Source: Callorhinchus milii (lineage: Eukaryota). Taken from it: a DNA stretch of 64,000 nucleotides. Below are positions 481 to 58,660 of the stretch, one piece after another (position 1 is the stretch's first letter; each line of letters begins with the position of its first letter). Position numbers and translations under genes: made by a program. Location: NCBI RefSeq assembly GCF_018977255.1, contig NW_024704749.1, forward strand, positions 16,864,001 to 16,928,000, read 5' to 3'. The notes beneath the pieces were generated by a model. The model saw only the letters and a program-made list of their open reading frames with translations. It was not told the origin of the DNA and did not search any database.

Positions 481-848
481 AATTTTCCATTAAATCAATG
501 AATTAAACATTTTATTAAAATATTGGCATCTTGATTCCTGTTGAGCACCACTTAGCAAAGAGCAATCGATGCCATGTGAGGTGTTCTTCGGGGATCGTGA
601 TGGGAATAATAATAATTTTTGCATTCGATATAATGCTGCATGCCATCGAGATGCCCCAATGTACTTCACAGAATTTACTGTAGAGTGTAGTACCTGCGTA
701 TTTATAGGCCAACGCAGCAGCCAATTTGTGCAAAGCGACGTCTTGCAAACGGCCATGAAATTAACGATCGATTTAAAAGAAAACGATTGTCATTATTTGC
801 GATTGATTCCTGGACGGTACGTAATGCGCGACCTGTTTGTTTTGGCAG

Positions 849-1070
849 AATGGAGGCGTCTTGTCTCGAGCTGGCTTTGGAAGGGGAGCGGCTGTGCAAA
901 GCTGGAGATTTCAAGGCCGGAGTGGCGTTCTTTGAAGCCGCCGTGCAGGTTGGGACGGAGGACTTGAAGACCTTGAGCGCCATCTACAGTCAACTGGGCA
1001 ATGCCTACTTCTACCTGAAGGAGTACTCGAAAGCCCTGGAGTACCACAAGCACGACCTAACACTGGCCAG
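849..1070 (+). CDS. GPSM1: GPSM1 exon 2 ([19 protein letters not shown]...DLTLAR), TPR
   Basis: ttggcag acceptor, ATG at 850, ccag|gtaagg donor; 222 nt. Confidence 0.96.
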
Positions 1071-4000
1071 GTAAGGTTCACTGGGACAGAGAGAGCCCTG
1101 AACTACTGAAAGATCGTTGGCTCCCACTTTACTATAGAGCTGAGCTCAGACATTCCTTCACAAGGAGAGCGAGGGAAGGGGATAGTGAGGACAGGGGAGA
1201 TGTTCAAAGCGTGGCAGTGGTAGAGCTAGAGTGGTTGTGCCTTCCCCCCCACCCCAAAATCCTCTTGTCATAGACCAATGCGCCCAATAATAAAGCAGGC
1301 CACAAGCTTAAAATGGTAGTGGTGGTGGTGGGAGCACAATCCTTGATCAGGACCTCTGGCTACCTTCAGGGTTCACCGTTAGCGACTGAGTATCCTGATG
1401 TGAACCATTGGACTGTTGAGGGTGGGGAGGGAGACAAGGGGCTAGAAATTTATGTGAAACTTGAGTCCAGGGGAAGAGACGCTGAGGCACCACTGGGAAG
1501 GTACTGCAGAGCTGGGCTCTTATCTCACGATGACAGGCCCTTTATCTGGTGGACAAGAATCCACTTTGGTTTGTGCCAGTAAAGGGGAATAATGTTCCCT
1601 GAGTTGCAGAACCCACACTGTTTGTTTGCAGGACCTTCTGGTTCTGTATGGGCAATAAAACGTTTCAAGGATGAACCTCTTTCCAACAGAACAATAGGGG
1701 ATCGCATTGGAGAAGCCAAAGCCAGTGGGAACCTCGGTAATACACTGAAGATTCTCGGGAGCTACGACGAAGCCATCGCCTGCTGCATAAGGCACTTAGA
1801 CATCTCTCGTGAGCATAGCGATAAGGTAATCTCACCGTGCCCTGTTAAACTGGGGTTTCCTGCCTTCTTCTATTGTCCCAGGTGCTCCGAGATGCTACAC
1901 CGCGTGAAGGGCACTATATAAATGCAAGTCGTTGTTGTTCTAAACACTGCCTTAGACGAAAGCTGTCCTGCCCAATCAATGAGAATTTTGCAGCAAAGCA
2001 AAAACAATATTGATTTCAAAGAGTTTTCAGTCCTGTGTTGAGTTTCCCACAGTGTGTCTGCTTGGCTCAGTTGGGAGATCTCTCGCCTCTGGGTCTAGTC
2101 TAGGCTAGGAGTGCGACACTGCACTTGCAGTCCTTCAGATGAGATGTTAACCGAGTTCCTGTCTGCCTGTCCAGAAAGGCGGCAAGGTCCTGCGGCACTC
2201 GTCAAAAAGAAAAGGGAGTTTCTCTCAGTGTCCTGGCCAACAATCCACCAGATAAAATTAGTCATTCATTTCATGGTTGTTGTGCAAATTGGCTGCTGCA
2301 TTTGCCAAAAAAATACTCCTATGAAATGCTTTGAGACGTCCTCTCAAAGTGAAGGGATTATGTTACTATTTTCTCTTGTGGCCTTGCTTGAATTGATGCA
2401 GAACCAACCAGGCTACACCATGTACCGATGGAATCAGTGACGTTAGTAATGGGATGAGTATAAACTTGATGGGTGGAACCAAATATAGTGCCACAGTTAT
2501 CAAAAGGCCGGAGATTACAGTAAACTTGTAAGATATAATATTAGGATAGGAGTATAAATATTTTAAAATGTTTATACAGCAGGTTTATGAGCAGAGAAGA
2601 TGGGACTGATGTGTGTTATGGTTTACATCCATTATCTCCTAATGTTTCCATAATATCCCAACTTAAGGTGAAAGTCTAGTCCTGACCCTGATGAAAATTA
2701 AAGGAGTTTTTAACTTTTGGTTTACAGTTTTCCCATTTTCCTAACCCTGGGCTTTTCCTTCTCTAGGGTTTTAGGGCACTATTTGAAAAGTGAACAGAGT
2801 TTCTTCCAGTGTCCTGGCCAACAGTCTCCCAAAATAAAATTGTTCATTCACTTCATGGCTGTTTGTGGGACATTAATCTCACTTGTTGCATTCGCCTAAA
2901 AAATGCACTACGCAGTCACTACACTTTACAGTAAATCCTGTGAAGCGCTTCCTTTGACATCCAGCTGAACAGGCAGTCGTTACCTCAGTTTAATGTCTCA
3001 TCTGAAGGAGTGCAATTTCAGCAACCCACATTTGTATTGGAATGAATAATAAGATAATCCTTGCATTTAATATAGAGCCTTATCACGTCTTCGAGACGTC
3101 TCAAAGGCAGTTCACACGATATACTGTAAAGTGAATTGACTGTGTTTTGTGGGTGAAACGCGGCAGCCGATTGCGCACAGCAGCGTCCCACAAACAGTCG
3201 TGGATTGAATGACCAATTTATTCTTATTCTTATTTATTTTTTGAAGGGTTTATTACCCCCGTAAAGAGTGAATGTTCACCTGGACTGTAAATTGGGGCTT
3301 GAACTCACGACCTCCTGATTCAGAGGCGAGCGAGCGCTATTAACTGAGACAGGTTGAGACACCCTAAAATGAGATGAACGTTTTTTTTGGGTGGGGGGGG
3401 GGGGGCTAAATCACAAAATGTTTTTGAGGATGACCTTCGAATGCAAGTGCTAATCCTGTCGATGTTTGCTGCTTCCTTCCCGTTAGGTGGGTGAAGCCAG
3501 AGCCTTGTACAATATTGGGAATGTTTTCCATGCCAAAGGGAAGCAGAGGTCGTGGAGTGCGTCTCACGAGTCTGGAGAGCTACCGGACGAGGTGAAAGAC
3601 ACTTTACAGAAGGCGACTGAATACTACGAGTGAGTTTCACTTCTCCAAACAATGCGAATGTTATTTCCCTGACGAAAGCCCTTGACCAGCAGCTCAGACT
3701 CTTACGCTACAGTGACCTGAATCTGTATGTGCACATTTTATAGGCGTAAAATCCTCTCTTGTCCTTCAGGGAGCTGACACAAAGGTAAGATCGGTTAAAC
3801 CTGAGGTGCCGTCTACTGTCATTTAAATGTGACCTTAAATCACTATAATAATAATAATAATAATAATCCTTGGATTTGATACAACACCTTAGCACGTCTT
3901 CGAGACGTCTCAAAACGCTTCACTGGATTTACTGTAAAGTGAATTGACTGTATATTTTGTGGGCAAAACGTAGTCTGTTCAGTAGACTATGTATGCTGGG

Positions 4001-7000
4001 TGGATTGTCTTGGGTGCTAAATCCTCAGCAGCCCTCCACACCAGTACTACACTGTAATGTTAGCTGATAGTCCGAGCTCAAGGTCCTGACATCAGACTTA
4101 AGTCCTCGACCTTTTCTTCTGACTCACAGATAAAGAGTTCCACAGACCGAGCCGAGTGGAAACGTTCATTGATTCTTTCAACACTCCTTTTTGTGTTAAA
4201 CCTATTCCAATTTTAAATCGGTTTATAATAAAGCCGAGAATTATTAAGGCTTATCTCATTATTGTGCTTCACTTTTACTCCCATTATTCACACATACCGA
4301 CTCCCCCTTCCCCCCCCCACCCCCGATACTGAATATATTTTTCCTTTCACCCAACGCTCACCTTTCTCAGATTCCTCTGACCTTTGGTTAACTTCGACGC
4401 AAAGGAGATTTGGGGTCTTCACTTGGGATTATTTTCAAAATGTGATTTATTTTTTCCAGGATGAATCTTGCCATCGTAAAGGAAATGGGTGATCGGGCAG
4501 CCCAAGGTCGGGCCTATGGGAACCTTGGCAACACCCATTACCTTTTAGGAAACTACCTTGATGCCATTGGATTTCACAAAGAGGTAAAGAGAGATCAGGT
4601 CATTTCAGTCTTCTCTTCCTCCTGTAATCTTCAGGCTTTTGAATTCAGAGCCTGGCATTGCTTTAAGTACTACGTCATAAATTATCTCAGTCGCTCTCTT
4701 ATTCCTTTCAACTTTTACCAATGTCCTGCCCTCTTATCCCTTTCGCTGAGAACCACTTCTCAATGTAAAATACAGTATCTACGACGGTGGGATCTACGAT
4801 AGACTTGGGAGCAGAAGGAAGGTGACCAGACACTTGGATAGTGGTGGATTTAAAAAAAATAATCCTTGTGTTTCGCGCAGCGCGTTTCACATCAAGAAGA
4901 CGTCTCGAAGTGTTTCGTGGGATATACTTTGCAGGAGAAATAGGCAACAGAACGCCAAAAAGAGCTGATATCTGAGTCTTTAGATCGTGGATATGTGTAA
5001 AGGACAACCCAAGGAGATTGCGTTGGCAAATTAAAGAGGATTTCAACTGCTCGGAGATGAAATCAGTTTGAGGGGTTACGAGAGATCAAGAGTAGCGTAC
5101 GATAATTTTTATTCTTTATGTTTTTTTTAAACCTTAAAACCCGCCAGACAGACGCAATGTTCTGTTCCAGTTCTGTACGATCCTGTGTCCTGTTTTCCTA
5201 TGAAAACTAAGGCCTCCGACTGTAATGACTTGAAATGCCATTTTAGCCTCAAAGTAGGATGCTGCTAATTACAGACCTGCCAGCAGACCTTCTGAGTAAG
5301 GGACGCTTCGAGAAGGAAGCTTTATTTATTTTTAAAAACTCCACCTTCATAATAACATAGCGTTTTCCTGCGTGACCCATAAGTTATAACTAAAGTTGGC
5401 CAATAATTAGTGTTTTACTTTGGGACCAAAAATTATAAGCTTTTTTTTTAAGCAATATTTTCGATTGCCTGCAAGGAAGTTGTGTTAGTGATGGGAAGTG
5501 ATATCCGTCTCGATCTAAAGACAATGACAGCAACGTGTGTTTATATAGCAACCTTCACTAGATGGGGGCAATGTTGGCCAGGACACTGGGAGAAGCTCCC
5601 TCCTCTGTATTAATATCTATATTCCCTTCTTGATCTGGATTTCAAAATCCCTTCAAAATATATAAATGTATATTAGTAATAATTTGGCTACTCAATCCAC
5701 GACTGTTTGTGGGGAAATACACAGTCAATTCACTATAGTGTAAATTCTGTGAAGCGCTTTGAGGGGTCTAGAAGACGTAATGAGACGCTATATCAAATGC
5801 GAGGATTATTATTATTTATTATTATTTAAATTCCTCCTTAATACTTACCTCTTCGACCGTGCCTATGGTCACCTCAACCTCTTCTTGACTCGGTGTCCAA
5901 CCTTGAGACACTGTCCTGCTTGAAGAGCACTACATAAGTGCAAGTTGTTTGTTTTTTCGATCATTGCCACGTGATCTTTAACATCAGCCCCAACAGGCAT
6001 TCGGGAGGTGGGTTTAACATCTCATTCGAAACAGAGACATCTCATCTGAATTCTATCAGACAGCTGCTGTGGTCATTGATCCTTGAATGTTTACTGTGGC
6101 CGTGAACTGTATTGAAATAACTCAGTGTTGTAGTAGTGCTATTCATTTCATTACTACCATAAAACCAAAGGCTGCTGTGAAGGGCTTTCATTATATGAAA
6201 TGACAAGCAAACCATTTCAATTGCGTGGCATGTGGTTATATCCATCGCTGATTGATTCATTTCAGGTCTATAGACGACATTATTAGACACGGAGACCGGG
6301 TACAGAATCTAATGTGTACAGTGCTGCAGATTAAAGAGACGCAAAGCCCGAACCATATTGATTTTTCAGTAGGAAAATTCATTAAAACAAGTAGCGCCTG
6401 CAAGTGAAATCAGCCGGCACATAAATATTTATTGCTGTGGAGTTTCGGTGTAATTAATGGATAATGGGTTATTTGTGGGATTTGAATGCAACAGGCAACA
6501 ATAAAGTTGGGGAACTTTTGTAAAGCGGGGGAGCTTTACCCGTGGGATTGGGGGGATGGGAGCTTAAAGGCCAAGTCCACTACAGGTGAGTTCTGATGTG
6601 GATCAGTGCAGGTGTGCCGAACAGATAAAATAATAGTACTAATAATCCTTGCAATTGATGTAGTGCCTTCCACGTCAGGTTGATGTCTCAAAGCCCTTCA
6701 AGGATTTACTGTAAAGTGTAATTTGTCTGCTTATAGATTCAAAGTCCACAAGGTAAAATACCGAGAGGAACTCTCCGGGCTTCTGCACGTGGTGTTAACT
6801 TAACGTGACGGTAGATTACCTGGCTGTTTTAGAATACTTTTCAAGGCCTGCAAAGGCAACCGCGCCTTCTCTCCTGTTACGAGCGCGATCATCAGTGTGG
6901 ACATCAGGCTCCGAGATCCCTGTAGTTGCAGGCGGCTGCTCAATAGGGGGCGATGGTGTCAAATAGTTTATCCTGTAACGTTCCCAGATGCCACGCAAAC

Positions 7001-38700: not shown

Positions 38701-41700
38701 CTGCGTTGCGCCAGTGATTTATTTTTGAAACACGTGGGTGACGGAAACAGACCTGCCTCCTCATGAGGGATAAACATTCTTCAATCGCAGTTACTCGCGC
38801 TCAGCTCTGCGCATCAAATTAAGTTTCCTCGATTTCTTTTAACTTGTTGGATGCTGTTGAGAAATTTCACAATCGACCTGACTCTAATCCCTCTCGGCTG
38901 GGTTTCCTTCAAAAAAAAATCAAGTGTTTCGGTGTTCGGTCGAAAAACGACGCGAATAATCGTTGCATTTGATAGAACGCCTTATTGCCCTCATTGAGAC
39001 GTCTCAGAGCTCTTCACAAATTGCTGTGTGCCAATTGGCCGCCAGGTTCACCCCACAAATACAGTCACCGCAGTTTGCAGAAATACCTGCGAAGCACTTT
39101 GAGACGTGATGAAGTGCTATAAGCAAGGATTATTATTATTATTATTATTATTAATCACACTGAGCCATTTAAGTGTGTTAATTAACCGCTTGGCCTCTCT
39201 GCCAATCGGGTTATTTCTGCTTTCACGCTGAAGGGATATTGAACAGCCAGAGCAGCGACAACCTGCATTTACGTAGCAGCCCACACTCAGGCAGGGAGGT
39301 GTCCCTGAGCGCTCGACAGTAATGGAGTGCGCGACATATCGAGGAGCGCTATCGGAACAATTAAATGGCGACTTCGAAACCTGATTTTTGTGTTTTACTT
39401 CCACAGAAGATAAGTCGGGAGGCCTCGGATGAAGAATGCTTCTTTGATCTGCTGAGTCGTTTTCAAAGTAGTCGCATGGATGATCAACGTTGTACCTTAG
39501 ACGAGCGGCAGAACGGTGCCATGAGCAACACCTCCCCACCGCTGTCTCCTTTGCAGGAGACGAGTGAGTATCTAGTGAGGACGTGTGAATCCAACCCAAG
39601 TAATCTCTCTTGATCGTCCTTCCGTTTCTCTTCCCCCCCGCCATTCGGCCGGGAATCCGCTGAGAGGTGGCCCGGCACTCGTCCAAACCACTCCCGGCTT
39701 CACAAAAGCTGCTCCAGGGAAGCCTTTGCTACCATTGCCCATTTACAGCTCAGCACTCGTCACGTTTATAATAATAATAATAATCCTTGTATTTGATACA
39801 GCGCCTTATCGCGTCTTCGAGACGTCTCAAAGCGCTTCACAGAATACACCGTAAAGTGAATTGACTGTATATTTTGTGGGCAAAACACGGCAGCACAGCA
39901 GCGTCCCCACAAACAGCCGTGGTTTGAAGTGATCTGTTATTTTTTTTTACATACATGTCCATTGGCAGAAGGAAATATCAAAGTATCAGATCCGTGTGTC
40001 AGTGGTAGCACTCTCGCATCGGGAGTCAGAAAGTTGGGGGTGGGGGGGGGGGGGTGTTGCATTATCAGAGGTTCTGTCCTTCGGATGAGACGTTAAACCG
40101 AGTCCCCGACAGCCTGTTCAGGGGGATGTGAAAGGTCCCGTGGCCGTGTCCGAAAAGAGAAGGGAGTTTCTCCCGCTCTAAAGGGTTCTGTGACGTTATT
40201 CTGTGCGGAGCGAGCGGGCTATAGAGATGCAAGCTGCTAACTGCTGTCGTCGTTATAAGCGCGCGTTGTTGTTTGGAGCAATGCAACTGGTGCGGCTTCT
40301 ATCTCGAAGAGTTGGGCTTGTTCAGTGGACACTGTGCAAAGCAGCGAGTCGAGCCCATGCACTGTGCTGCATTAGTTGGCTCAGCTCCCTGCCTGTTAGC
40401 TCCGGGACACTACCCCGCGTGAAGGGCACTACATAAATGCAAGTTGTTGTTGTTGTTGTATTACCCACTGACTGACGTGTCGCGCAATGTCTCGCCTCAC
40501 TGTGCCAAGCACCTCGTCTGGCCTGACCACCGTCCTCGTCTCTCACCTTCGAAAGCAACGATAAAGTCAATGATGGGAGATATTAAATGCGCTGTGGCTA
40601 AGGACTGCTCCATTACTCACTCTGTCCTTGACCATGTGCAGGGCTTGTGAATCATATTGCGCACACCAGATCCAATAAAAATGTAAATCACAGCTACCGA
40701 TGTGTAGTTATGAGATGTCGCAGTGACCGCATTGTTCCGGGAAATAAATACGGTCATTAACTGCATGTGAATGTTAATCAAAGTGCAATTGAACTCTTTA
40801 TATATACAGAGCGTGCTTAATGAGTGAATCGGACATTTATCCCCTGGCAAGGTTAATAACAACAACTTTCATTTGATGTAGAGCCTTATCACGTCGTTGA
40901 GATGTCTCGAAGTGCTTCACAGAGTATATTGTAAAGTGGATTGACGGTGTATTTTGTGGGCGAAATGCGGCAGCCAATTAATTGCGCACAGCGGTGTCCC
41001 ACAAGTAATCCTGTGAAGTGCTTTGAGACATCCTCCTGCATCGAAGGTTCGGATCAAGTTCTCTTTCTCTAATTGGGTCTCTCCTTTCTCCCTCCAGCTC
41101 AATCCTCGGTCATTACATCCCCTCAGACGGAAGAGTTTTTTGACTTGATCGCGAGTTCCCAGAGCCGGAGGCTGGACGACCAGCGAGCCAGCGTGGGCAA
41201 CCTGCCAGGACTGAGGATCACTCACAATAATAGCCAGGTGGTCATGGGGCATCTGCGGACAGACGGAGACCCTCAGGAGCCCGGAGATGAGTTTTTCAAC
41301 ATGTTAATGAAATGTCAGGTAAGGCACTGTGAGGAGACAAGATTCAAATCATGCGTTTTCTTTTTTGGAGGGGGGGGGGGGTGGTTATTATGTTTGGCAA
41401 GGTGCAGGGAAATTGAAACCTTCCCATCAGAGGCTAGCAGTGTCAGCATCAAACACTCTTGATGTCACACTGAACAGTGGGCCTCAGCATTAGCTGAACT
41501 AGGGAGGGAAAACTCTATAGGGACGCCCAGGCAGGGTTAAGGTAGAGAGCAGACAACCACAAATTGCATTTAAATCGCACCTTTCAGGTCAGGACAACGG
41601 CCCGAGGCGCATCTGAGCTGGGGGGTTGAATCGAGAGCGGTGGAGGGCAACAGGGATGGAGGTGGGAGGATGACTGAAGGTCCAGTTCTTTTTTGTAAGA

Positions 41701-46339: not shown

Positions 46340-46387
46340 TTAAGCGTGTGGCTGCAGAACATCAAGAAGTCCCAGAGGTAAAGCGAT
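46340..46387 (-). CDS. Minus-strand gene last coding exon ([15 protein letters not shown])
   Basis: ggtttctccag acceptor, TAA at 46342-46340, followed by UTR-like sequence. Confidence 0.62.
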   Translation of the reverse strand: MALPLGLLDVLQPHA

Positions 46388-49300
46388 CTGGAGAAACCAA
46401 CAACACACAGAAATGAAGGAGCAAGTAAACTCACACACATTAGAGCGTAGTGGAGTCATGTAAATCAGGTTAAGGGACGTGCCGGTTCAAAGCCCTGATA
46501 ATGACATTGTGTTTATTCCCAGTACAGTATGTTTTAGCTGATTCTAGAGTTACATAATAATAATCGTTGCATTTCATATAGCGCCTTATTACATCTTCGA
46601 GAAGTCCCAAAGTGCTTCACAGAATATGCTGTAAAGTGAATCGACCGTATATTTTGTGGGCGAATTGCAGCAGCCAATTGCGCACAGCAGCGTCCCACAA
46701 ACAATCGTGGATTGAGTGACCAAATTATTAGCAGTAGTTTTTTGAAGGAATTATTCAGGAAAGGAGGGGAGAACCCCCCCTTCTCCCCCAAGGAAATATA
46801 ATAGCAAATGATTCCTTTCTGTGAACTATCCATAATGGATTTACCTGCTGTTCCGTTGGATGGTTTTCGGATCCTGTTGTCTGTGACGATGTGAATCCAG
46901 ACAAGGTCAGGCACTGCAACTGGCTTCGAGCCCCTGATAATAACAAGGATTTTTCACATAAAACTGTCAGCGAAGCCATTCGACATCTCTAACTAAGGTC
47001 AGAGCGATTCTTAAAACAAAGGTTGGCTGAAATAATGTCCTGACCATGAACAGACTGCGACGGAATAAAATGGGATAAGAGAAATGAGGACCTAATTGAA
47101 GGAAACCAGCACAGCAGGATAATCCCAGCCAGCAGTGCTAAAACGCCTTGAGACGTCCTGTGTTGCACATCAAATGCAAGAATTATTATCATTACCACAA
47201 CCCACTGACCTACGGGGATGTGAGGAGGCTGCTCACCAGTGCTGTGGACTGGAACCTGACCCTCAACAGCCGTGACTGGCATTAGCTGCTGTGTCTGGGG
47301 AAGAGCAGACAGTCCCGGCTGCTTCAGGAGCTGCTCCGCTCCACCAGGGCACTGGATCTTCATCTTCAACGTTTCCACTCGAGGGCGAAGGTGGGCCAGA
47401 GCCTCAGTGTGCGTCAGGGCAGAAGCCTGGACTTGCGGAATCTGTCCCTGGCTAAGGACCAGGTCTTCAGGAGGCCCCGAGTCTAACAGCTGCCCTTGCT
47501 CCCTGCACTCCTGCCGTTCCTTCTTCTGCTGGATTTGAAAGGCCTGGAGTAACAGAAATGACGAGCTTTTAAAACACAAACTTATTAAACTGAAAGATAA
47601 GCCGCTTCAGGGCAAAGCTGGAGATACTTATTAAGGCCACAAAGGTCACAAGTTTGACTGACACTTGTCAGGGACATAGTACATTGCACTGAGATACCAC
47701 CATTCAAAAAGGAAATCAATAGCCACTAACAAGAGACTATAATAATCCTTGCATTTGATATAGCGCTGTTCACATCTTCTAAACGTCTCAAAGCGCTTCA
47801 CAGAATATACTATAAAGTGAATTGACTGTATATTTGTTGGTGAAACGCGGCAGCCAATTGCACACAGCAGTGTCCCACAAACAGTGGTGAACTAAAGCGA
47901 TATAAAAAAAATTCTTGAGGGATTATTATCAGGTGTGTGGAGTAATGTAACTTGCCCAAGGTTTTGCCCTTCCAGGAATCGAACCCAGATTTCTCGCTTG
48001 TGAGATGAGTGCTCTAACCACTGAGCTACAGGACTCCACTACAGGACTAGCGCTACAAATTACAGCACTGGCTCAATCCCAATTTTTAACATGTTAAAGA
48101 TTTGCATTAAACCGTATATTTTAAGATATTTAGTTAACTGTCAGTGAACCAGACCGCTGGCTATGAAGTATTTGGGATGTATTCCACGTTTCTCTGTGGG
48201 TACCTGAAGAATTAGCTGACTGGCTGAGGTACATATACTGGTGCCTCTTCTGTTACTCAGAACTCCCACAGGATTTGACTGATAAAATGAGAAGCAAAGA
48301 AAAAAAAAATTCAAATCTATTAAAAAGCTAAAATATTATTTGCAATTTCTCACAACACAGCTCAGTTCAACTGGCAGCGATAATAAAGTCAACCTTTTTT
48401 CCACAACGTAAATCAAAATTTTCAAGCTCACTCTAAAGTATTAGAACGCTTCACTCTTTATGTAGCTTCCCACTTGCCTGGCGTTAAAAAAGAGTATGTG
48501 TGTTATAAAGACAGCTGTGTGAAGGCAACCTTCTCCACGTCGAGCTGCTAGAACATTTCATTCATTCAGAGTTTGTTCTGTGACAGACCAGCCATTGCTT
48601 GTGCCATTGGCAGCTGTGTCAGGCTCATTGTAACCTGAGAGCATGACGCAGTGAGTTGGGGCAGATTCTTAGCAATGAAGGACTATTTTTCGCCCCACAA
48701 AAACCAATTCACTTTGCAGTATATTCTGTAAAGCGCTTTGAAACATCTCAAAGACATGATAAGGCGCTGTATCAAATGCAAGGATTATTATTTATTATTG
48801 TTTGGTTATGTCTCAATAAGGGTTTTATTCGAGGTCTGACAAAGAAGTTAAAAAGTATAGCGAGACCTGGGTGTGAGTTGTAATTAAGAGACTCAGGCCA
48901 TTAGAATCTGATCAACAAGCTTCCCCAAAGGCCTAGTAGGTCAAAGGCACCATTAGGCCACTAGCTTTGAAGCTACTGATCTCAACAAGAGCTAAATCCC
49001 TGGGGTAGAGCAGAAAAATAAGACTATGTGTGTGTGCATGTCAGATACGTCTAGTATTAGGCTGGGCTGTAATACCTACCAAAACTCAGTACGTCTTATA
49101 GTTAAACTGTTAGTTCCACTCTCCCCACAACCCACACTTACCGATAATTCCTGGTTCAGAGAAATGGGTACGAGCTGGGCTGGCACTTCCTGAATAGTGA
49201 CTTGTCCAGGGTCCAGAAAGGGGCTATACTGTCCGCTGACATTCCCGCAGTTGTTTGCCGAGTTAGTGGGAATATTGCACAATAAAGCAGCCTGGGGCTG

Positions 49301-52300
49301 AGGCCTGATGGTCCCAGCCACACTGCAGGGCAGGTCTAACGTTTGAACAAGGATCTAAAATGTTGAAAGAACAAAACATTAGTTTAATAAGAGCTAAACT
49401 GGAGCACAGCGGAAGCAAACTGGGGCTGAGAAAATCCAAAATGTATTTTGCCATTTCCTTTGCTAAGGATTCATTCTGAGGTACACTTTTAGGTACAGTA
49501 CAGCTGCCTGGACTATTTAAGAAACAAATCTGGGGCTATTTCAACAGTGAGGGGATGGCTATCATGGCTAAGTCTGACTTCATATGCACTGCTTACAGCA
49601 GTTACCCAATAGCGCAGTGTCGCATGAGCTTAGTCTTAAGACTGTTTATAATCTGCACTGACTTGTCAGAAATGCCGACCTTCAGATGAGAAGTTAAATC
49701 AAGGTCCCGTCTGCCTGTTCAGGTGGAAGTCAAAAGGCCTTGGAAATTATTTCAAAAAAGAGGTGTTTCTCCCGGTGTTCTGGCCAACAATCCTCCAGAT
49801 AAGTTAGTCATTCACTTCATGGCTCTTTGTGGGAGCAAATTAGCAGTTTCATCTGCCGACAAATTCACGTCTCGAAACACACAGCAATTAATAGCCTACA
49901 GAGCACTTTTGAGATGTCTGAATATTACTGAATAATAGGTGGCTGGATCGAATGCAAATTCTTATAATAAAACCCAACTGTAAAACCCAAAGTGACCTGA
50001 ATATCACTCTGTTGGAGGATATCCTGGATGAGCCCAATGGTGGTTGGCACAGTGGACAGGAGCTGGGAATGGCTGGCATTCTGCATTATCCATCCCATCA
50101 CCGGACCCTCTTTGGACACACTTTGCTGCTGTAGTGCCTGTGGTTTGGATGACAGTCCCATCAATTGCTGTGGGACTATCACGCCGTTTGCTGGACACAC
50201 AGAAGAAGGCTCTTGGAGGCTGGTAACTTGAGGTGAACCCATTGCCTGGAGGTGCTGAGCGGTTTGCTGGGTTGCGACACTTCGTTGTGGAGACACTGGT
50301 GAGAAATCTGAAACGTTCTGCATCATAAAAATAAAATGAAAAGGATTCATTAGGAAACAAACCTAGTCCCTGTTTACCTGTTCAGGTAGACTTTATAGTT
50401 CCCAATTGAACTATTCGAAAAAGGAAGAGAGTTTCTCATTGTGTAATGACCAGTAATCCACCCAGATAATAATAGTAACAGATGACTGTTTGTAGGACAT
50501 AGCTGTGCACAAATTTGCTGCCAGGTTTGCCTACAAACACATAGTCACTACATCTTACAGTACAACTCCGTGACCTGCTTTGAGATGCTTCGACATAGGT
50601 GCTACTTCAATTAGCTTTACGTGCCTGAGAATGTGATTTAAAAAGTATTAAGAGAATATCCGGCTCTGAAGATAGAATTCAAGCCAGAGAGAGCAGGTTT
50701 TAGAATATAAATGCTCAGCCCGCACGTGTGCTCAGTGCCACTCGTTCTACATGAGCAACCCTTGACCTGAACCAAACCAGGGCATTAACGAGTGAAGGAG
50801 AACTGAATGCCACGTCCACCCAGTGTTGAGAGTCAAACGCTGAGTGAGCTGTGTAGATATGGTGCCATCTAATGGCAGACACCAGATATTGACACAAAAC
50901 GTACAAGGCACCCAACCCTGTTACAACACAACCAAAAGAGGGAGAGCAGCTGGGAAAACTCAGGAGGTCAGGTAGCATCGATCGAGGAAAGGAAAGTGAG
51001 TCAACGTTTCGGGTCCACGACCCTTTCCTTCATAGATGCTGCCTGACCGGCTGAGTTTTCCCAGCTGCTCTCTGTGTTTTGTTTCAGATTCCAGCAGCTG
51101 CAGTATTTTGTGTTCTGTTACAACACTGGTTGTTATCGCAAACTGAACACGCGCCGTACATTTCTGTACGTCGGAAGAGGTAGAGTAGCAGTCAACGGTA
51201 AATTGACAACCCATAAATTGGCCATTGTTTTACTACAGAAAGTTGGCTGGACAGCGCTAGAGACCAAGTGTACTCGAAACACTAGACAATAGCACTATAA
51301 ACTATAAGCTTTGGTGAATGAGTTAGCACCAATTTAGAATTGAGGGTTGAATGATCTCCTCGGCTGTACAGCGCCTTGGGACGTCCTCCCGACGTGAAAG
51401 GCGCTCTATAAATGGAATCTTGTTGTTGTTGTTGTAGGCTGTCATTTCTATGCATCTATGGGAAGGTTACACTCAGTACCTGGGGCTTGTAGCCATGTTG
51501 TTGCTGCTGTTGTTGCTGCAGAATCTGAACTTGTTTTTTCAACACCTCAATTTGTTGCTGTTGCACCTGGATCTGAACCTGGTTTGGAGAAGAAGTACAT
51601 TAGCTATCAAGAGTGGGACTGTCCTGCATAGCCTCAACATATTAAAGGCAAAGTATTGTGGAGTCCTGGAGCATAGTGGTTAGCCCACTCACCTCACAAG
51701 TGAGAGGTTTAATTGCCAGACGGGGCAAAACCCTAGGCAAGTTTCTTACTTCACACGTCTCTGTTTACCTAGCAGTAAGTAGGAACGGTTGGCGGATCGC
51801 TTTCTGGGGGTTATAATCCCTCCAAAAAAACATGGTCACTCAATCCACAACTGCTGTGTACAACTGGCTGCCATATTATGCGCACAAAATACAGTCAATA
51901 ATTATTATTATTATTAATAAAGAGAGAACTTACGGTGGCTGGCAAAGAGGACAGCTGAACACTTGGGACAGACATTGTGATGCTTTCTGAGGCTGCTGCA
52001 GCTACACTGGCAGAACCTCGAGTAGAGCTTGGGGCATTTGTTGGGTTCCTGGTGCCCAGTCGCTCAACACCAACCTTTTTCTGAGTCCTCGCCTTCCCCT
52101 GGAAACCAAAGGAAAATCAAATAAAGAAGCTCATATGAGTCATGTGGAGAGGCCACTGCAGACTTTTTCACAAAGAACAAAAAAAAGAGAATACTCATGG
52201 AAGATTTGAAGTATTAAAGATCCTAAAAGGAATAGGTAAAGTCTAATAACCCCCCCAAAATTAATAATCCTTGCTTTTGATATAGCGCCTTATCATGCCT

Positions 52301-55300
52301 TCGAGACGTCTCAAAGCACTTCACAGAACATATTGTAAAGTGAATTGACCGTATATTTTGTGGGTGAAGTTGCGCACAGCAGTGTCCCACACACGGTCAT
52401 GGATTGACTGATCACGTTCTTCTTTATTTGTTTATTTTTAAAGAACGTGTTAAAGCCCCCAAACTTGGAGAGCACAAAAAGCAACATCGTTGGGGTTTTG
52501 TCTACCTTCCACCACCTTTTGAGCCCGTGGGGAGGAGGCTCTCTCTCGCCTCCGGTTCTTTTCATCTGCTCGCTGACCCGGCCAATGGTGCTATGGCTGC
52601 AGCCTGTGACCCAGCTGATGAACTTGTAGCAGTTTGATCTCAAGCCACCTGGAGCAGTGTGAGAAAGACAGCGTTCAGACTGCAAGCATTTACCTCGCAG
52701 GTTACACCGAGGATCCGTTCCACAACCGGAGGCAACCACAGCAGCGGGTGGAAGCACTCTTGCAAACCGGTTTTCTGGAGTTCTTAAATTGCCTTCCACA
52801 AACTTAAATCTGAAGAGAAAAGCCTTAGGGATAAGATTAGCCTGAAGTTTGGGCTTCTGGTTTCTTCCCGCCACCCCTACCCCACCACCCCACATGGTTT
52901 CCGCGTGTGTCAGACACCCGGCTGACCAAAGCTAAAAAATACAAGTGCAGTGCAGTAAATGCAGTGCAGGATTTACACAAGTGCTGAGAGATGGCTGCAC
53001 TGGTAGACACTCACCTGAAGGAGTAAGCATTTCAGCCAGCGTCCTGCGGGCTTCAGCCTGTCCCTTAGAAGCACGTTCCCTCCAGAGGTCAAGCAAGCGA
53101 GCGTGAGTGCGTGCCATCTGGAAAACAAGTCAGGGTTCTTCAAACACTGCTGCTCTGCTGTATCTCACCCCGTTCCACCCACAGATCCACCTTTTCAAAC
53201 TGCACCTCCCGTTTACAACACAACAAATGACACTTGCCTAGCGCCCTTCACGTCGGAAAGACGTCCCATTGACCCCTGCGGCTACTTACCAAAACGCAGT
53301 TATCCACACAGCACTTCTCGGTCATAAGTTCTGCAATTGGCTTCAGGAGCCCCAGAGCTCCTTTCCTTTGCTCCTCTCCACTCGCACCCCCTTCTGTAGA
53401 GAATTCAGCAAAGGTGGGTGAGATTTAAAGCACTGCGGTGGAAAGGCTTCCCTTAAAGTTTTATCTTTGTGTCCGGTCCGTTACCTCGGGATCTGTTTTG
53501 AGCTTCTTATGCAGGAAGTTGTTGGAATACCCGAGGATCCGTTGCGTGGCTCTCTCGCACAGCTTCAGCTCGCTTCGCAACGTGCTGCGGTTCCTCAGGA
53601 CGAATTCTTCGAACGCCTTTGATTTGCGTTGACCGTTTCCCAGGCCGATGGACCTTCTGAAAAAAACAAGAGCATCAAATCGACAGCAAATGTCTGCTAA
53701 CTTACACATCTATTTCTTTGAAGAATACATCGAAAGTTGTCTGTTGTTATTTACTTTCCTTGGGGTTCATTAAAAAAAAACAATTCCGTCACTCGATCTA
53801 CGTCTGTTTGTGGAATGCTGCTGTGTGCAATTGGCTGTTGCGTTTGGCCCACAACATATACAGTCACTACACTTTACAATATATTCTGTGAAGCGCTTTG
53901 AGACGTCTCAACTACATGAAACATCTCAGACATTTCGAATACTGAGAGCAAGGGACCCGGCAGCTTCTTAATAAGTCAATAGTGAGCGGAGATACTAACC
54001 AACAGACAAATTCAAGCAAAAAAAAATCCTGAATCGTATAAATGGGGGGGAAACAATCTTTAAAACAAATACATTTTATACAAATTATCCAACTTTTAAC
54101 ATAAACTGGATTTCTTACTTTCTTGATTTTCCCACTTGCACTTGGCTTTCACTGTAACATTTCAATGAACTAAGTTGCTTTGCTTCTTTCAGCAGCTGCA
54201 GAAGACTGAGAGCTCGATGGCGACACTGGCTCAGATCTTCCCCTGAAATCAAGGCCAGGGTGAGGTGTTAGAACCAACGGCTTAGGTGATAAATAACCAG
54301 GGGTAGTGGTGCCTGGGGTCAGAGAAGCTGCTGAAATACTAAACTGAGTGACTCTGCGTGCTGTGGAGAGGATTCTCTGACGTTCATGTCAACGTCATTC
54401 TAGAGATACTAGAGCGTTTGAGCTTACAAACGCTCACACAAATTGTGCAGATGACCTTTCATATTGCCCACAAAGTCACACTGTCACTCCGCTTTACAGC
54501 ATATCCTGTTAATCGTCCTCCTGACGTGAAAGGCGCTGTACATAGAAACAGGAGTAGGCCATTCAGCCCCTCGAGCCAGTTTTGCCATCCTATAAGATCA
54601 TGGCTGAGCTGTACCTCAAGTCCAATTATCCGGCCTTGCCCTGTGTCACTTAATAACCTGACCTAGCAAGTATCTATCTACCGCAGTCTTGAAGATGTGA
54701 ATGGATCCAGGATCCACAGCCTTTTGGGGGAGAGAGAGTTCTAGATATACCAAATGTAAGGATGATTATGTTTATAATAAAGGCACGTTACTTCAAAAGT
54801 CAAAATGCCCAGTCCCCTCACCGGGCCTCCTGATGTAGTTCTGCAGACACTGACACGGCTTCTTCACAAACAAAGGGCAGCACAGCTTCTCCGCATCTTG
54901 GTCACCCAGTAGGTGTGTCACGGCCGCTGTAAATTCCCGCAGCTCCTCCTCGTGCTTCTTGCGTGCGCTGGCTTCGACGTTTGTGCAAGGGGTGTGAGGG
55001 CGACGAGGTCTGTCAAACGCTAGACCTGAAGCAAGCAAAAGTCTTACACGGCTTCTCGTGGATTGGTCACAGTGAATTACAGGGAAAAAAAAGCACCCGT
55101 TAACAAGAACCGAACAGGTTGAGCACATAAAAATCCGTAAGAGTATCCTTGCTTAGCTTCATCATACTTTACTGGACTTCCATGTTAAAGTAAACCAATT
55201 TACTTAAAACTTCCTTGAAGAAAAGTAAAGGGATGCTGGTAGCAAATCTACAATTTGCTGTATCAAGTGCATCTGGCTCCACTTCCTGTCTGGCACAAAC

Positions 55301-57877
55301 CACCTCCTCCATACAAACGCAGAAAACCCCCCAGGGGCTGAAGGAAAGAGTCAGGCTACGGCTCAATCTGAAACAGGTTGCGGAAAACCCATCTCCTTGC
55401 TTCAGAGTATCCAAACCAAGCTGAGAATTCCATGCAGCTCACCTCCACATGGAGATCACAGAGACAGATTGTTGGCGTGGACTGCGCACTCTCTCCCTGG
55501 CTGGAGGGACGCATGCTGCTTACCTAATTCCGGGAAAGTATTCGGCGCAGATTGGCAAGGGCTTGAGGGGCTGTTGAACTTACCACATGCATTACATAGC
55601 GTTAGCACTCGTCCAGTCTTTGGGTCGTTCTTGCGGCGTGGTGACGGGCTATAGTTTGATGTCTTCAATCGATTGCCCCGCCGTCTAGGATCCGTAATGT
55701 AAGGGGATTTGCAGATATCGCAGCAAAACCTGGCTTCCTTTCTTCCCTCTAGAAGAAAAGTTTACAAATTCAGTCTGGCTTTAAAATTCCGTGCTTTGGA
55801 TTTTCAGTTGCAAAGTAATTGTTCCGGGCTGCCCGGTGGGTAAAGGCACTTCAGCACTTGGCTAGAAACACCTACGTTTAGCAGGTTTCAATTTCTAGTC
55901 TTTGCTCCATGTCCCCCACCCGGCCCTCCCCACCATCAGTGGTCGGGCCTTCAGCCTTTCTGCCCCCATACTTCAGAACTCCATCCCAGTCCCTTCGCCT
56001 CGCCTCCTCCCTTTCCCATTCAAGGCCTGTCTCAAGACCCTCCTCTCGATCGTGTCTTCGGTCACCCTCCTACCCCGACCCTCCCTGCTCTCGAACCCCT
56101 CTTGATCTCAACCCCCATCTCAGGTCCATCCTTGACTGTCCAGTCTTGGGTTGTCCTCCCGACGTGAAAGGCTCTGTGTAAATATAATTTGTTATTGTTG
56201 TTCAATTAACTGATTTCAGCCAGGCTGGCAAAAATTACAACTGGTCTGGGATGCTGAAGCCACTTGTAATATTGAGATCAGCTGAGATCAGGGAACTTAG
56301 TACAGACCAAGACTCAAACCTGTGACCCTGAAAGATTATCTGGCAACAATCCCCCAATTGGTGTTCAATGCCTTGCCTGATTTGGCTTTGGATGGACTGC
56401 ACTTCCACTTGCTCTTTTTTCTCCTGACTGGAGCTTCTTCCACTTCGGGTGAAAAGGACCGTTTTTTCCGCACTCTTCCACTCCTTCTTCGTTCAACCAC
56501 ATTACTGGACTCCTGATGAACCACCTCCTGTAAGCAAATGGATGAAGATATAACCAGGGTTTTAAACAACGGGTGGTAAGGTATTGAAACCCAATTGCTA
56601 CACGTGGCTCTGAATTGATGCGAGGTTCATATATCATTCAGTCATCTCTCCTTGACTATCTGTTTTCCATTCTTTTTACATTTTCAACTGCTAATATCGA
56701 CAATATCGTCTCGCACTCTGTTAGGTTATGTCAGCCAAGCTAAACTCGCCCTCGCCGCCACTGTCTTAAGGAGTAGAAAAAATCAAGACAGAATTTCTGC
56801 TCCTGATTACTATCCAGTGACTGAAAAGTGCAAGTGTGAGGACATATAGTGAGGAAACAGGATCGAGTCAAACAGCCTTCCAACATGAACAGTGGTCAAT
56901 ATGAGTGATTTCAGTGGAATGATAAAGGAATTTAAGGCAGATTCCGCAGACTAAGGGAGAAATTCGTGGGGGAAATAGTTTTACCCAAGTACAATAAAAA
57001 CTCACCACAGACACGTCGGTTAAATTCAGATTGAGTGATTCATTCGCTTTGCTCTGTTGTTGCCCAGGTCCGTCGACCACTGACACGAGTTTAATCTCCC
57101 TGCGGATCTGATCTGCATCTGCAGTAAATGTCAAGAAATGCAAAACAAGCTAAAATGTGCTGAAAGGGCACTAAGTGCCAAAGACACATGTACCCCCTTC
57201 TACTTGGGAGCATCTTGGGACATCCTCCCGACGTGAAAAGGTGCTACATAAATGCAATTTGTTGTTTGTTGTTGCTGCTGCTGTTGAATTCTGAGAAACA
57301 AATCAAATCAAATGAACGCTTGTTACTTTCCAGACACAGCCCATCTCAACACGAAATGATTAATTTACCGGGTTCTTCATCACTTAGCCGCTGCAGGACC
57401 ATTCAGTTCTTCCACTTTCAAATGCATAACATTTCGGCTCTGCATTTCCCTTTCTGCATCTCTCTCGATTTCTCTCTCTCTCTCTCTCTCTCCCGCTGTT
57501 TCTCTCCATTGCTCTTCCTCTCGCTGTTTTATCTATTTCTCATTACTCTCAAAATGAGTCACTTCAATCCCACGACTGTTGGACGGGGACGCCGCTGCGC
57601 GCAACTGGCTGCCGCGTTCCGCCCGCAAAAATAAACAGTCAGTTCGCTCGACAGTACATCCTGCGAAGCGCTTTGAGACGTCTCGAAAAGACGCCGTATC
57701 AAGTGCAAGCTTTATTGCTGCCCCTCTCTTTTCTTTCTCTCTCTCTCTCTCTCTCTCGCCGTCTCTCCATTTCTCTCTGCGTTCCTCTTTCTCGCTCTAT
57801 TTCTCTTTATTTATTCAGTTATTTATTTACTCACTCACTCATTCATTCATTCACTCTCAGGCTGTTGAACAGATGGG

Positions 57878-57909
<32 letters not shown>

Positions 57910-58100
57910 CTGGAACTACAATTCCCACAGTGCCCCGCGCGGGCCCCGCCCGGGGGGGAGAGGACAAGATGGCGTCGTGTGTCTCTCTCTCTATCCCTCC
58001 CTCAGCCCTGAGGGCCTCACACACACACACACACCGACCGCCGCCGCCGCCATCCTCCAGCCGCCGCCGCCGCCGACTCACCGCGGCTAAAGACTTCCAT
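46340..58100 (-). CDS. Uncharacterised ~824 aa putative nuclear zinc-finger protein: complement(join(46340..46387,47214..47543,49142..49354,49997..50317,51480..51578,51934..52098,52506..52648,53015..53117,53290..53393,53485..53656,54119..54242,54822..55025,55584..55748,56377..56527,57006..57118,58082..58100))
   Basis: 16 exons with polypyrimidine-AG acceptors and phase-matched donors (14 GT, one GC). Total 2474 nt, one base short of 825 codons; the shortfall is in exon 8. Contains [21 protein letters not shown]...LCNACGL and a Q-rich C-terminus. Confidence 0.82.
47214..47543 (-). CDS. Minus-strand gene exon 15, Q-rich ([12 protein letters not shown]...QPPHIP)
   Basis: ttactccag acceptor, ccc|gtaggt donor (competing donor 4 nt downstream); 330 nt open. 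Confidence 0.74.
47738..48040 (-). mobile_element. Full-length young tRNA-derived SINE with intact Pol III boxes
   Basis: Minus strand reads gtggagtcctgTAGCTCAGTGGttagagcac...gGGTTCGATTCCtgg, then body, L2-type hairpin and (ATT)n. Confidence 0.88.
49142..49354 (-). CDS. Minus-strand gene exon 14 ([10 protein letters not shown]...LNQELS)
   Basis: cattttag acceptor, tcg|gtaagt donor; 213 nt open. Confidence 0.76.
49997..50317 (-). CDS. Minus-strand gene exon 13, Q/S/P-rich ([11 protein letters not shown]...ILQQSDIQ)
   Basis: ttttatgatgcag acceptor, cag|gtcact donor (weak); 321 nt open. Confidence 0.72.
50942..51072. repeat. Palindromic element, ~50-bp imperfect inverted arms (Penelope-like remnant)
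   Basis: gagagcagctgggaaaactcaggaggtcaggtagcatcgat pairs with atagatgctgcctgaccggctgagttttcccagctgctctc. Confidence 0.75.
51480..51578 (-). CDS. Minus-strand gene exon 12, poly-Q/coiled-coil ([33 protein letters not shown])
   Basis: cttctccaaaccag acceptor, cag|gtactg donor; 99 nt; mixed CAG/CAA codons. Confidence 0.78.
51657..51916 (+). mobile_element. tRNA-SINE copy with longer central domain
   Basis: gtggagtcctg head as at 48040, extra ctctgtttacctagcagtaagtagg segment, (ATT)n end. Confidence 0.7.
51934..52098 (-). CDS. Minus-strand gene exon 11 ([10 protein letters not shown]...SSLPAT)
   Basis: ggtttccag acceptor, acc|gtaagt donor; 165 nt open. Confidence 0.78.
52506..52648 (-). CDS. 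Minus-strand gene exon 10 ([25 protein letters not shown]...[11 protein letters not shown])
   Basis: gctccag acceptor, aag|gtagac donor; 143 nt. Confidence 0.85.
53015..53117 (-). CDS. Minus-strand gene exon 9 ([34 protein letters not shown])
   Basis: gttttccag acceptor, cag|gtgagt donor; 103 nt. Confidence 0.87.
53290..53393 (-). CDS. Minus-strand gene exon 8 ([10 protein letters not shown] / [24 protein letters not shown]); apparent 1-nt deletion
   Basis: tctctacag acceptor, ttg|gtaagt donor; 104 nt between two phase-0 junctions. Confidence 0.72.
53485..53656 (-). CDS. Minus-strand gene exon 7 ([20 protein letters not shown]...[26 protein letters not shown])
   Basis: [18 protein letters not shown], gag|gtaacg donor; 172 nt. 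Confidence 0.88.
54119..54242 (-). CDS. Minus-strand gene exon 6 ([30 protein letters not shown]...GKSRK)
   Basis: gatttcag acceptor, aa|gtaaga donor; 124 nt. Confidence 0.85.
54541..54730 (-). mobile_element. CR1 LINE 3' end
   Basis: Minus strand ends ...ctcgaggggctgaatggcctactcctgtttctatg, the chondrichthyan CR1-type terminus; related pieces at ~27700-27840 (-) and ~28900-28990 (+). Confidence 0.72.
54822..55025 (-). CDS. Minus-strand gene exon 5 (GLAFDRPRR...[22 protein letters not shown])
   Basis: tgcttcag acceptor, ccg|gtgagg donor; 204 nt. Confidence 0.88.
55584..55748 (-). CDS. Minus-strand gene exon 4, atypical GATA-like zinc finger ([10 protein letters not shown]...LTLCNACG)
   Basis: ttttcttctag acceptor, tg|gtaagt donor; 165 nt. 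Confidence 0.88.
55900..56202 (+). mobile_element. L2 LINE 3' fragment
   Basis: [25 protein letters not shown] translation, tail cctcccgacgtgaaaggc and (TTG)n. Confidence 0.78.
56377..56527 (-). CDS. Minus-strand gene exon 3, basic NLS-like ([17 protein letters not shown]...RRKKSK)
   Basis: gcttacag acceptor, cag|gcaagg GC donor; 151 nt. Confidence 0.78.
57006..57118 (-). CDS. Minus-strand gene exon 2 ([17 protein letters not shown]...TDVSV)
   Basis: tttactgcag acceptor, gtg|gtgagt donor; 113 nt. Confidence 0.75.
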
Positions 58101-58660
58101 TCCGAGAGCAAGGTCAGGCCAGCTGCCCGAGCCGCAGACATTATTGTTAACGGCGAATGGATGACAAACGAACTCCTCCTCTTCCTCCGCCTCCTCCTCC
58201 GCGCCGTCGCCTCACCCTCTCCCCCCCCCGCCCCGCCCCCCGGCGGGTGACTGACGTGCGCTGGCCCCGCCCCCCTCTCGCCCGCTCTCTCTCTCGCTGA
58301 GCGAGACCACTGTGACGCCGGGGGATAGGGGAGGACGGTACCTCCCTTTTACAACTTGTGTTCAAAAAAAACCGTTCACCGTTAAAAGTTATCAAGACAC
58401 TGGTCAGAAGAGCTCAAGAGGGGGTCATTCGCGTGGCTGCTGCACATTTTGCAGTTAAAGGCAACGGAAATAACGCTCGAGTGTTTTGTTCTGTTTCCCC
58501 CCCTCCCCACCACCACGCACACGCGCACTGGGTTCTGGTACCTTGGACCGGACCAAGTGACGTTGACAGGCAGGCAGGCAGGCAGGGGGCGTCTTGCGCA
58601 GGCGCACCGTGAAACCGTGCCAATTTGAGGCGGGCCGCCGCCATCTTTGATAAAGGCACG
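57930..58660. promoter_or_regulatory. CpG-island promoter of the minus-strand gene
   Basis: Dense CpG and (GCC)n runs, GC boxes (ccccgccccc), CRE-like TGACGT near 58253, YY1-type CAAGATGGCG at 57965 and GCCGCCATCTTT at 58637. Confidence 0.8.
58082..58100 (-). CDS. Minus-strand gene coding exon 1 (MEVFSR)
   Basis: ATG GAA GTC TTT AGC CGC G|gtgagt inside the CpG island; phase 1 matches exon 2. Confidence 0.65.

Follow-up and report, generated by a model that had tools for sequence, protein, structure and literature searches.

Gene model and splicing evidence

The 64,000-nucleotide stretch analysed here (the window) spans positions 16,864,001 to 16,928,000 of contig NW_024704749.1 of Callorhinchus milii. 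Its minus strand carries a spliced gene for a GATA-finger variant, in a protein family for which no name was found. The variant is a C4 finger of GATA type that has a long spacer, a helix and a basic tail (residues 104-158, 55000..55722) and is cut by intron 4. The motif-bearing exon matched XP_007898483.1 (P0002, 855 aa, LOC103183049, Callorhinchus milii) at 100%, and residue numbers throughout are those of this protein. Mapped onto the window, the protein is encoded by 17 minus-strand exons from 58100 to ∼46340; joining window exons 1-7 gives its first 316 residues. The first 11 exons have AG acceptors and GT donors, with the exception of intron 3 (GC-AG). All features of this gene given below are on the minus strand.

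Contigs from sequencing runs were used as evidence of splicing. X1, X2, X5, X6 and X9 were taken as RNA on the guess of the tool, none being recorded as such; X1 and X2 come from the same single study, and X11 and X12 are DNA-like. Among the rows listed, the RNA-guess contigs contained spliced joints for introns 1, 2, 3, 5, 6, 8 and 9. Exon 4 (55584..55748) encodes both CxxC pairs and the 38-residue spacer. It is preceded directly by the non-canonical GC-AG intron 3 (55749..56376), joined in X1, X5 and X9 (three of four runs, the fourth unspliced), and followed by intron 4 (55026..55583, GT-AG, 558 nt), which lies in phase 1 within the Gly codon after CNAC. The intron 4 joint was present in two of four runs (X1, X2); X6 stops short of it and the DNA-like X12 is unspliced there. 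Two letter differences from exon 4 in the run contigs are both synonymous. Exon 5 (54822..55025) encodes the finger helix and basic tail and then the start of a downstream module (C199, C207, C209).

Upstream, the coding part of exon 1 (58082..58100) is joined to exon 2 in X1, X5 and X9, and exon 2 (57006..57118) is placed by protein mapping and contig joints. An alternative first coding exon of the annotated isoforms P0291 and P0292 (57369..57402) was read from sequence, with no joint among those listed. Exon 3 (56377..56527) encodes clusters of basic residues together with a conserved basic-[FYL][STD]P motif that 74 of 118 proteins contain (shuffled mean 1.5); these are likely a nuclear localisation signal adjoining a Ser-Pro site. 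Exons 11-17 (46340..52098, inner bounds approximate) encode a long helix predicted at residues 487-515 and a low-confidence Gln/Ser/Pro-rich tail.

Compared with P0002, exon 8 lacks one base at 53359-53361, giving as it stands a stop at codon 17. X1 contigs, and those of the DNA-like X11, have the extra base; X5 and X9 have no such row. The newer annotation holds two records here, P0289 (242 aa, with the finger) and P0290 (516 aa, 'transcription factor SPT20 homolog'), the split gene having the identifier LOC121849583 beside the misnamed 'SPT20 homolog'. The missing base is likely an assembly error that split one gene into two records; the practical consequence is that the newer elephant-shark annotation has the gene in two, with one half mislabelled.

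Finger sequence and conservation

The initial annotation had described C-D-I-C, 38 residues and then C-N-A-C-G-L, spliced across exons 4 and 5. The spacer is exactly 38 residues, and the four Cys were placed on the window at 55722-55720 (C104), 55713-55711 (C107), 55596-55594 (C146) and 55587-55585 (C149). The Gly after CNAC is split by intron 4, and the next exon reads LAFDRPRR, in numbering that matches P0002. A CNACG-coding pattern is found a single time in the window, where 0.01 would be expected.

The CxxC pairs are conserved together, contrary to the outcome that the initial annotation had named as refuting its reading. In the first homologue alignment (99 rows, denominators being the rows that cover the column) the counts were 95/95 for C104, 95/95 for C107, 96/96 for C146 and 95/96 for C149. 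Spacer length was 29-43 residues in 107 family matches; indels between homologues fall in the first loop, which averages 28% Lys+Arg. Across 50 diverse homologues the knuckle is conserved (N147 49/50, A 45/50, G 45/50, L151 41/50), with basic residues at 155-158, and the second helix Leu of GATA is Arg (R155 in 37/50). The reported absence of the TPxWRR Trp was borne out, the shark spacer having none; Trp occurred anywhere in the spacer of 4/50 homologues and in none of those listed at the P131 position. P-x-P-R replaces T-x-L-W-R-R (P131 41/50, R132 45/50, following residue variable).

In the proposed search against Pfam GATA (PF00320), P0002 scored 13.6 bits, under the gathering cut-off of 26.8. 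Scores of 9.7-17.1 bits were obtained for 15 of 26 homologues, and the sole pass was a divergent locus, L002 (28.3). The layout is one finger, split by intron 4, not dual fingers each in its own exon. The protein was not filed as a GATA factor because its spacer, Trp motif, Pfam score and finger layout all depart from that class.

Conservation is weaker in the finger than in the modules downstream, and ticks and some unnamed members have a shortened finger or lack it. In turtle records P0079, P0107, P0104 and P0135-P0137, several of them partial models, the fourth Cys or the Asn is lost; the orthologues of turtles, the only amniote group with named hits, are possibly in ongoing decay. Four unnamed proteins, P0209, P0211, P0212 and P0217, keep both modules; P0212 and P0217 show none of the finger upstream of these, and the short N-termini of P0209 and P0211 also lack it. 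These are possibly a finger-less subfamily.

Predicted fold of the finger

In the predicted model the CxxC pairs align jointly with those of solved GATA fingers, model range 4-60 falling on GATA1 201-236 with an rmsd of 1.6 Å, and a helix is predicted after CNACGL. GATA-finger matches in the fold lists were at 1.6 Å and 31-33% identity. Much of the lists is filled by L24e-type and FYVE fingers, at ∼3 Å and ≤26% identity (VIA lists). The superposition leaves 21 residues unaligned, that is, 38 minus 17. The initial annotation proposed a basic loop insertion of ∼20 residues; judged from strand positions, the extra residues are probably divided, ∼16 lying in the variable basic loop and ∼5 lengthening the beta-hairpin. 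Both CxxC pairs are predicted to bind one Zn, with the extra 21 residues looping out.

If R132, whose strand faces the residue before C146, is equivalent to GATA3 R329, as the GATA hairpin register suggests, then Trp is replaced by Pro, the preceding Leu by a small or polar residue, the hairpin is longer by 5 and the first loop by ∼16. On this reading the Arg and Asn that contact bases have probably been kept and the hydrophobic contacts have changed; a changed DNA site, as the initial annotation proposed, is plausible. Residue equivalences follow the GATA3 numbering of PMC8611019 and the canonical residues of 10.1101/2022.05.20.492891.

Modules downstream of the finger

The finger is an accessory N-terminal part of a much larger, more conserved core. 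Module 1 (residues ∼165-316, exons 5-7, 53485..54981) is helical, with invariant C199, C207, C209 and C292 and a nearly invariant C-E-x6-L-x-YSNNFLH motif; it is predicted to hold a second Zn site. Module 2 (residues ∼317-433, exons 8-10, 52506..53393) has C344, C345, C349 and C392 and helices at 371-382, 393-400 and 404-417, and is predicted to be a helix-turn-helix. A tandem duplication of the two modules was considered, since their last Cys and the helices after it appear in register by eye, but is not claimed (hhalign probability ≤0.3% in four comparisons).

No Pfam family covers the core, and neither module had a Pfam or PDB sequence match. Pfam scans of nine single-exon frames gave nothing below E 0.03, and NCBIfam scans of seven proteins nothing near cut-off. 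ESM Atlas searches with P0002 95-440 and P0238 50-425 gave no usable match, a result that shows neither absence nor novelty. A PDB sequence search with the full-length profile had only Gln-rich matches among its top rows, AtGATA18 reaching E 0.67; with the finger profile, C2H2 and GATA matches were weak, all at E 0.01 or above. Foldseek of both models against the PDB gave nothing at E ≤ 0.001. A viral Foldseek row at E 2e-4 was rejected (rmsd 59 Å).

Family members and distribution

Residues 95-440, used as a query, retrieved 99 proteins of 470-1497 aa along with 81 shorter ones. When 1.84 billion representatives were searched with a profile, 418 matched at E ≤ 0.001 (150 of them listed), a count that may be inflated by Gln-rich tail positions taken into the profile. 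Core identity to shark was 61% in Nematostella (∼340 residues), 56% in Trichoplax and 37% in the sponge Oscarella. About 100 of the 180 word-search matches carry an organism name. Named vertebrate members are from cartilaginous fishes, sturgeons, paddlefish, gar, bowfin, coelacanth, salamanders and turtles, and other deuterostomes are amphioxus and echinoderms. Molluscs, a brachiopod, annelids, nemerteans and a priapulid are represented, as are chelicerates, an ostracod and insects (roaches, termites, orthopterans, damselfly, thrips, sawflies). Non-bilaterian members are from cnidarians and Trichoplax; cluster look-ups added a bryozoan, copepod, barnacle, hemipterans, sea spider and myxozoan. 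Among proteins of ≤1497 aa, no genomes being scanned, none came from mammals, birds, crocodilians, squamates, frogs or teleosts, nor from Diptera, Lepidoptera, Coleoptera or nematodes, a pattern that suggests repeated loss. The viral contigs searched held no relative.

A quick tree built from 39 chosen rows groups the vertebrates as a starred clade, within which the subgroups are species-like, and leaves most invertebrate and deeper forks open; the placement of P0238 and P0252 is a meeting of long branches. Divergent members retain the full GATA-type tail, and the position and phase of intron 4 also occur in the divergent loci L003 and L004. These members give independent support for GATA ancestry, and together with the conserved Cys pairs and predicted fold they support the assignment as a divergent GATA-type finger. 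In L004 (329-3700, plus strand) the divergent homologue lies in a compact genome ∼1.3 kb downstream of an apparent intron-rich glycine decarboxylase P-protein gene (weak Pfam match, E 0.08). P0193 carries a fusion to DUF4455/4456, P0087 one to a DRG-type GTPase and P0099 one to an AAA ATPase; each occurs in one record, and all were presumed to be merged gene models.

A literature search, with most subscription journals and supplements outside its reach, found no paper on the family by locus identifier or topic; supplementary tables of gene-family surveys could list these loci.

Flanking features

The plus strand at ∼691-42250 carries a neighbour with TPR exons (691-4799) and GoLoco motifs (39365-39610, 41073-41459), 71 of the plus-strand frames being scanned. 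By these motifs it is a GPSM1/GPSM2-type gene lying tail to tail with the finger gene, and offers a synteny anchor for examining possible loss in other vertebrates. An Rfam tRNA match of 44 bits lies inside an intron at 47964-48035 (minus strand); it is possibly the head of a tRNA-derived SINE, because similar sequence recurs near 51660-51740. High-copy interspersed repeats occupy introns at 53760-53950, 54530-54730, 55380-55560 and 57640-57830, with summed contig depth of thousands and above. Two AAGATGGCG elements, which we take to be YY1-like, lie on opposite strands at 57962-57975 (plus) and 58635-58650 (minus), to either side of exon 1. The stretch is GC-rich and may be a promoter of housekeeping or bidirectional type.

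Interpretation

The finger is very probably a GATA-derived C4 finger, and the predicted fold and ancestry indicate that it likely works as a GATA type. We expect with good confidence that the protein is a DNA-binding nuclear regulator. The full reading, in which a four-Cys finger folds as a GATA-type zinc treble clef, likely GATA-descended, and heads an unnamed nuclear DNA-binding transcription regulator, is on balance the probable one. Basic clusters would direct nuclear import; the finger helix and hairpin Arg (R132, N147, L151) would enter the major groove in GATA fashion, with the basic loop and tail gripping the backbone. The two Cys-rich helical modules would read neighbouring DNA and carry most of the fixed function, and the Gln-rich tail would recruit co-regulators. 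The site in animals would probably be composite and non-WGATAR, because P131, S130 and R155 stand where GATA has the Trp, the preceding Leu and the second helix Leu; that the finger itself reads a non-WGATAR site we favour only slightly.

A GATA-derived finger could instead be protein-binding or structural, like GATA N-fingers with cofactors, leaving DNA to the helical modules. Its weaker conservation, its reduction in ticks and some unnamed members, and the loss in animals of the canonical Trp and helix residues fit such a role, which 10.1101/2022.05.20.492891 proposes for RCOR-1/SPR-1 fingers. Most members, however, keep the putative base-reading R132, N147 and L151 and the basic tail, and divergent members keep the full GATA-type tail. 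We hold this role to be unlikely. A finger still reading a GATA core (WGATAR or GATC-like), in a single-finger GATA factor with extra domains, would account for the retained Arg, Asn and first Leu and for the one divergent member over the Pfam cut-off; the GATA domains of Caenorhabditis, though divergent, have kept their binding to canonical sites (10.1101/2022.05.20.492891). It is nevertheless improbable, as the animal members examined are without the Trp, preceding Leu, second helix Leu and RPL tail, and the spacer exceeds the canonical one by 12-26 residues.

It is very improbable that the core is the DNA-binding part of a domesticated transposase, the protein acting on chromatin or repeats and not as a classical transcription factor. 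The core may resemble DUF7869-type proteins; Pfam scans of P0002 and homologues showed no transposase catalytic or DUF7869 domain, and a literature search for DUF7869 found no papers. Least probable is an RNA binder or non-DNA scaffold with a basic treble clef like ribosomal L24e-type fingers. The prominence of L24e-type and FYVE fingers in the fold lists speaks for it, but they fit worse than GATA fingers, and the sequence bridge leads to GATA.

Returning to the transcription regulator, we tentatively consider a wider claim that we would not yet rate as probable: an unrecognised pre-animal transcription factor class, combining a long-loop GATA finger with two zinc-stabilised helical DNA-reading modules, which has hardly changed between sponge and Trichoplax on the one side and sharks, coelacanth, salamanders and turtles on the other. 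Independent losses toward human and mouse, chicken, zebrafish, frog, fly and worm would then have left it with no name, motif or function.

That the shark and sea anemone cores are 61% identical across ∼340 residues, and that no Pfam model covers them, points to an old, constrained function, seemingly dropped by the standard model organisms. GATA surveys selecting C-x2-C-x16-20-C-x2-C (for example PMC9535882) would skip the family. Should the protein prove to be a transcription factor, the ancestral animal toolkit would gain a family and a DNA motif, and the finger would show how much loop growth the GATA fold tolerates. Nematostella, Hydra, sea urchin, amphioxus and Pleurodeles are amenable hosts for direct testing.

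Comparison with known systems

Like canonical GATA1-6 (PF00320), the shark protein has a C4 finger ending L-C-N-A-C-G-L, then a helix and basic tail; the predicted core superposes at 1.6 Å, with Arg, Asn and Leu at the presumed base-reading positions. It differs in having one finger against two and a spacer of 38 against 17 (16-20 in 10.1101/2022.05.20.492891 and PMC9535882), in the absence of the Trp and, in animals, of the RPL tail, and in a 270-aa core after the finger, which GATA factors lack. The shark intron separates finger from helix, whereas GATA fingers are each in their own exon (PMC2383905).

The predicted single treble-clef finger also matches those of fungal AreA (rmsd 1.6-1.7 Å over 35-36 residues) and plant AtGATA18 (2.7 Å over 37 residues), but their loops are ∼17-18 residues (18 in 10.1101/2022.05.20.492891), and the shark family adds two modules with no Pfam or PDB sequence match. 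EGL-27/RERE, RCOR-1/SPR-1, MED-1 and spider Fuchi likewise have divergent fingers with non-canonical residues and a DNA specificity possibly changed or lost (10.1101/2022.05.20.492891, PMC9535882). Unlike the shark finger, their loops stay within ∼15-20 residues, and RERE and RCOR proteins have ELM2/SANT domains, none of which was matched in the shark family by Pfam scans. Against the tri-helical helix-turn-helix domains of TrpR, ParB/KorB and SETMAR/Mos1, the scores of module 2 lie within the range of a common arrangement; no sequence similarity to these was detected, and module 2 adds four conserved Cys.
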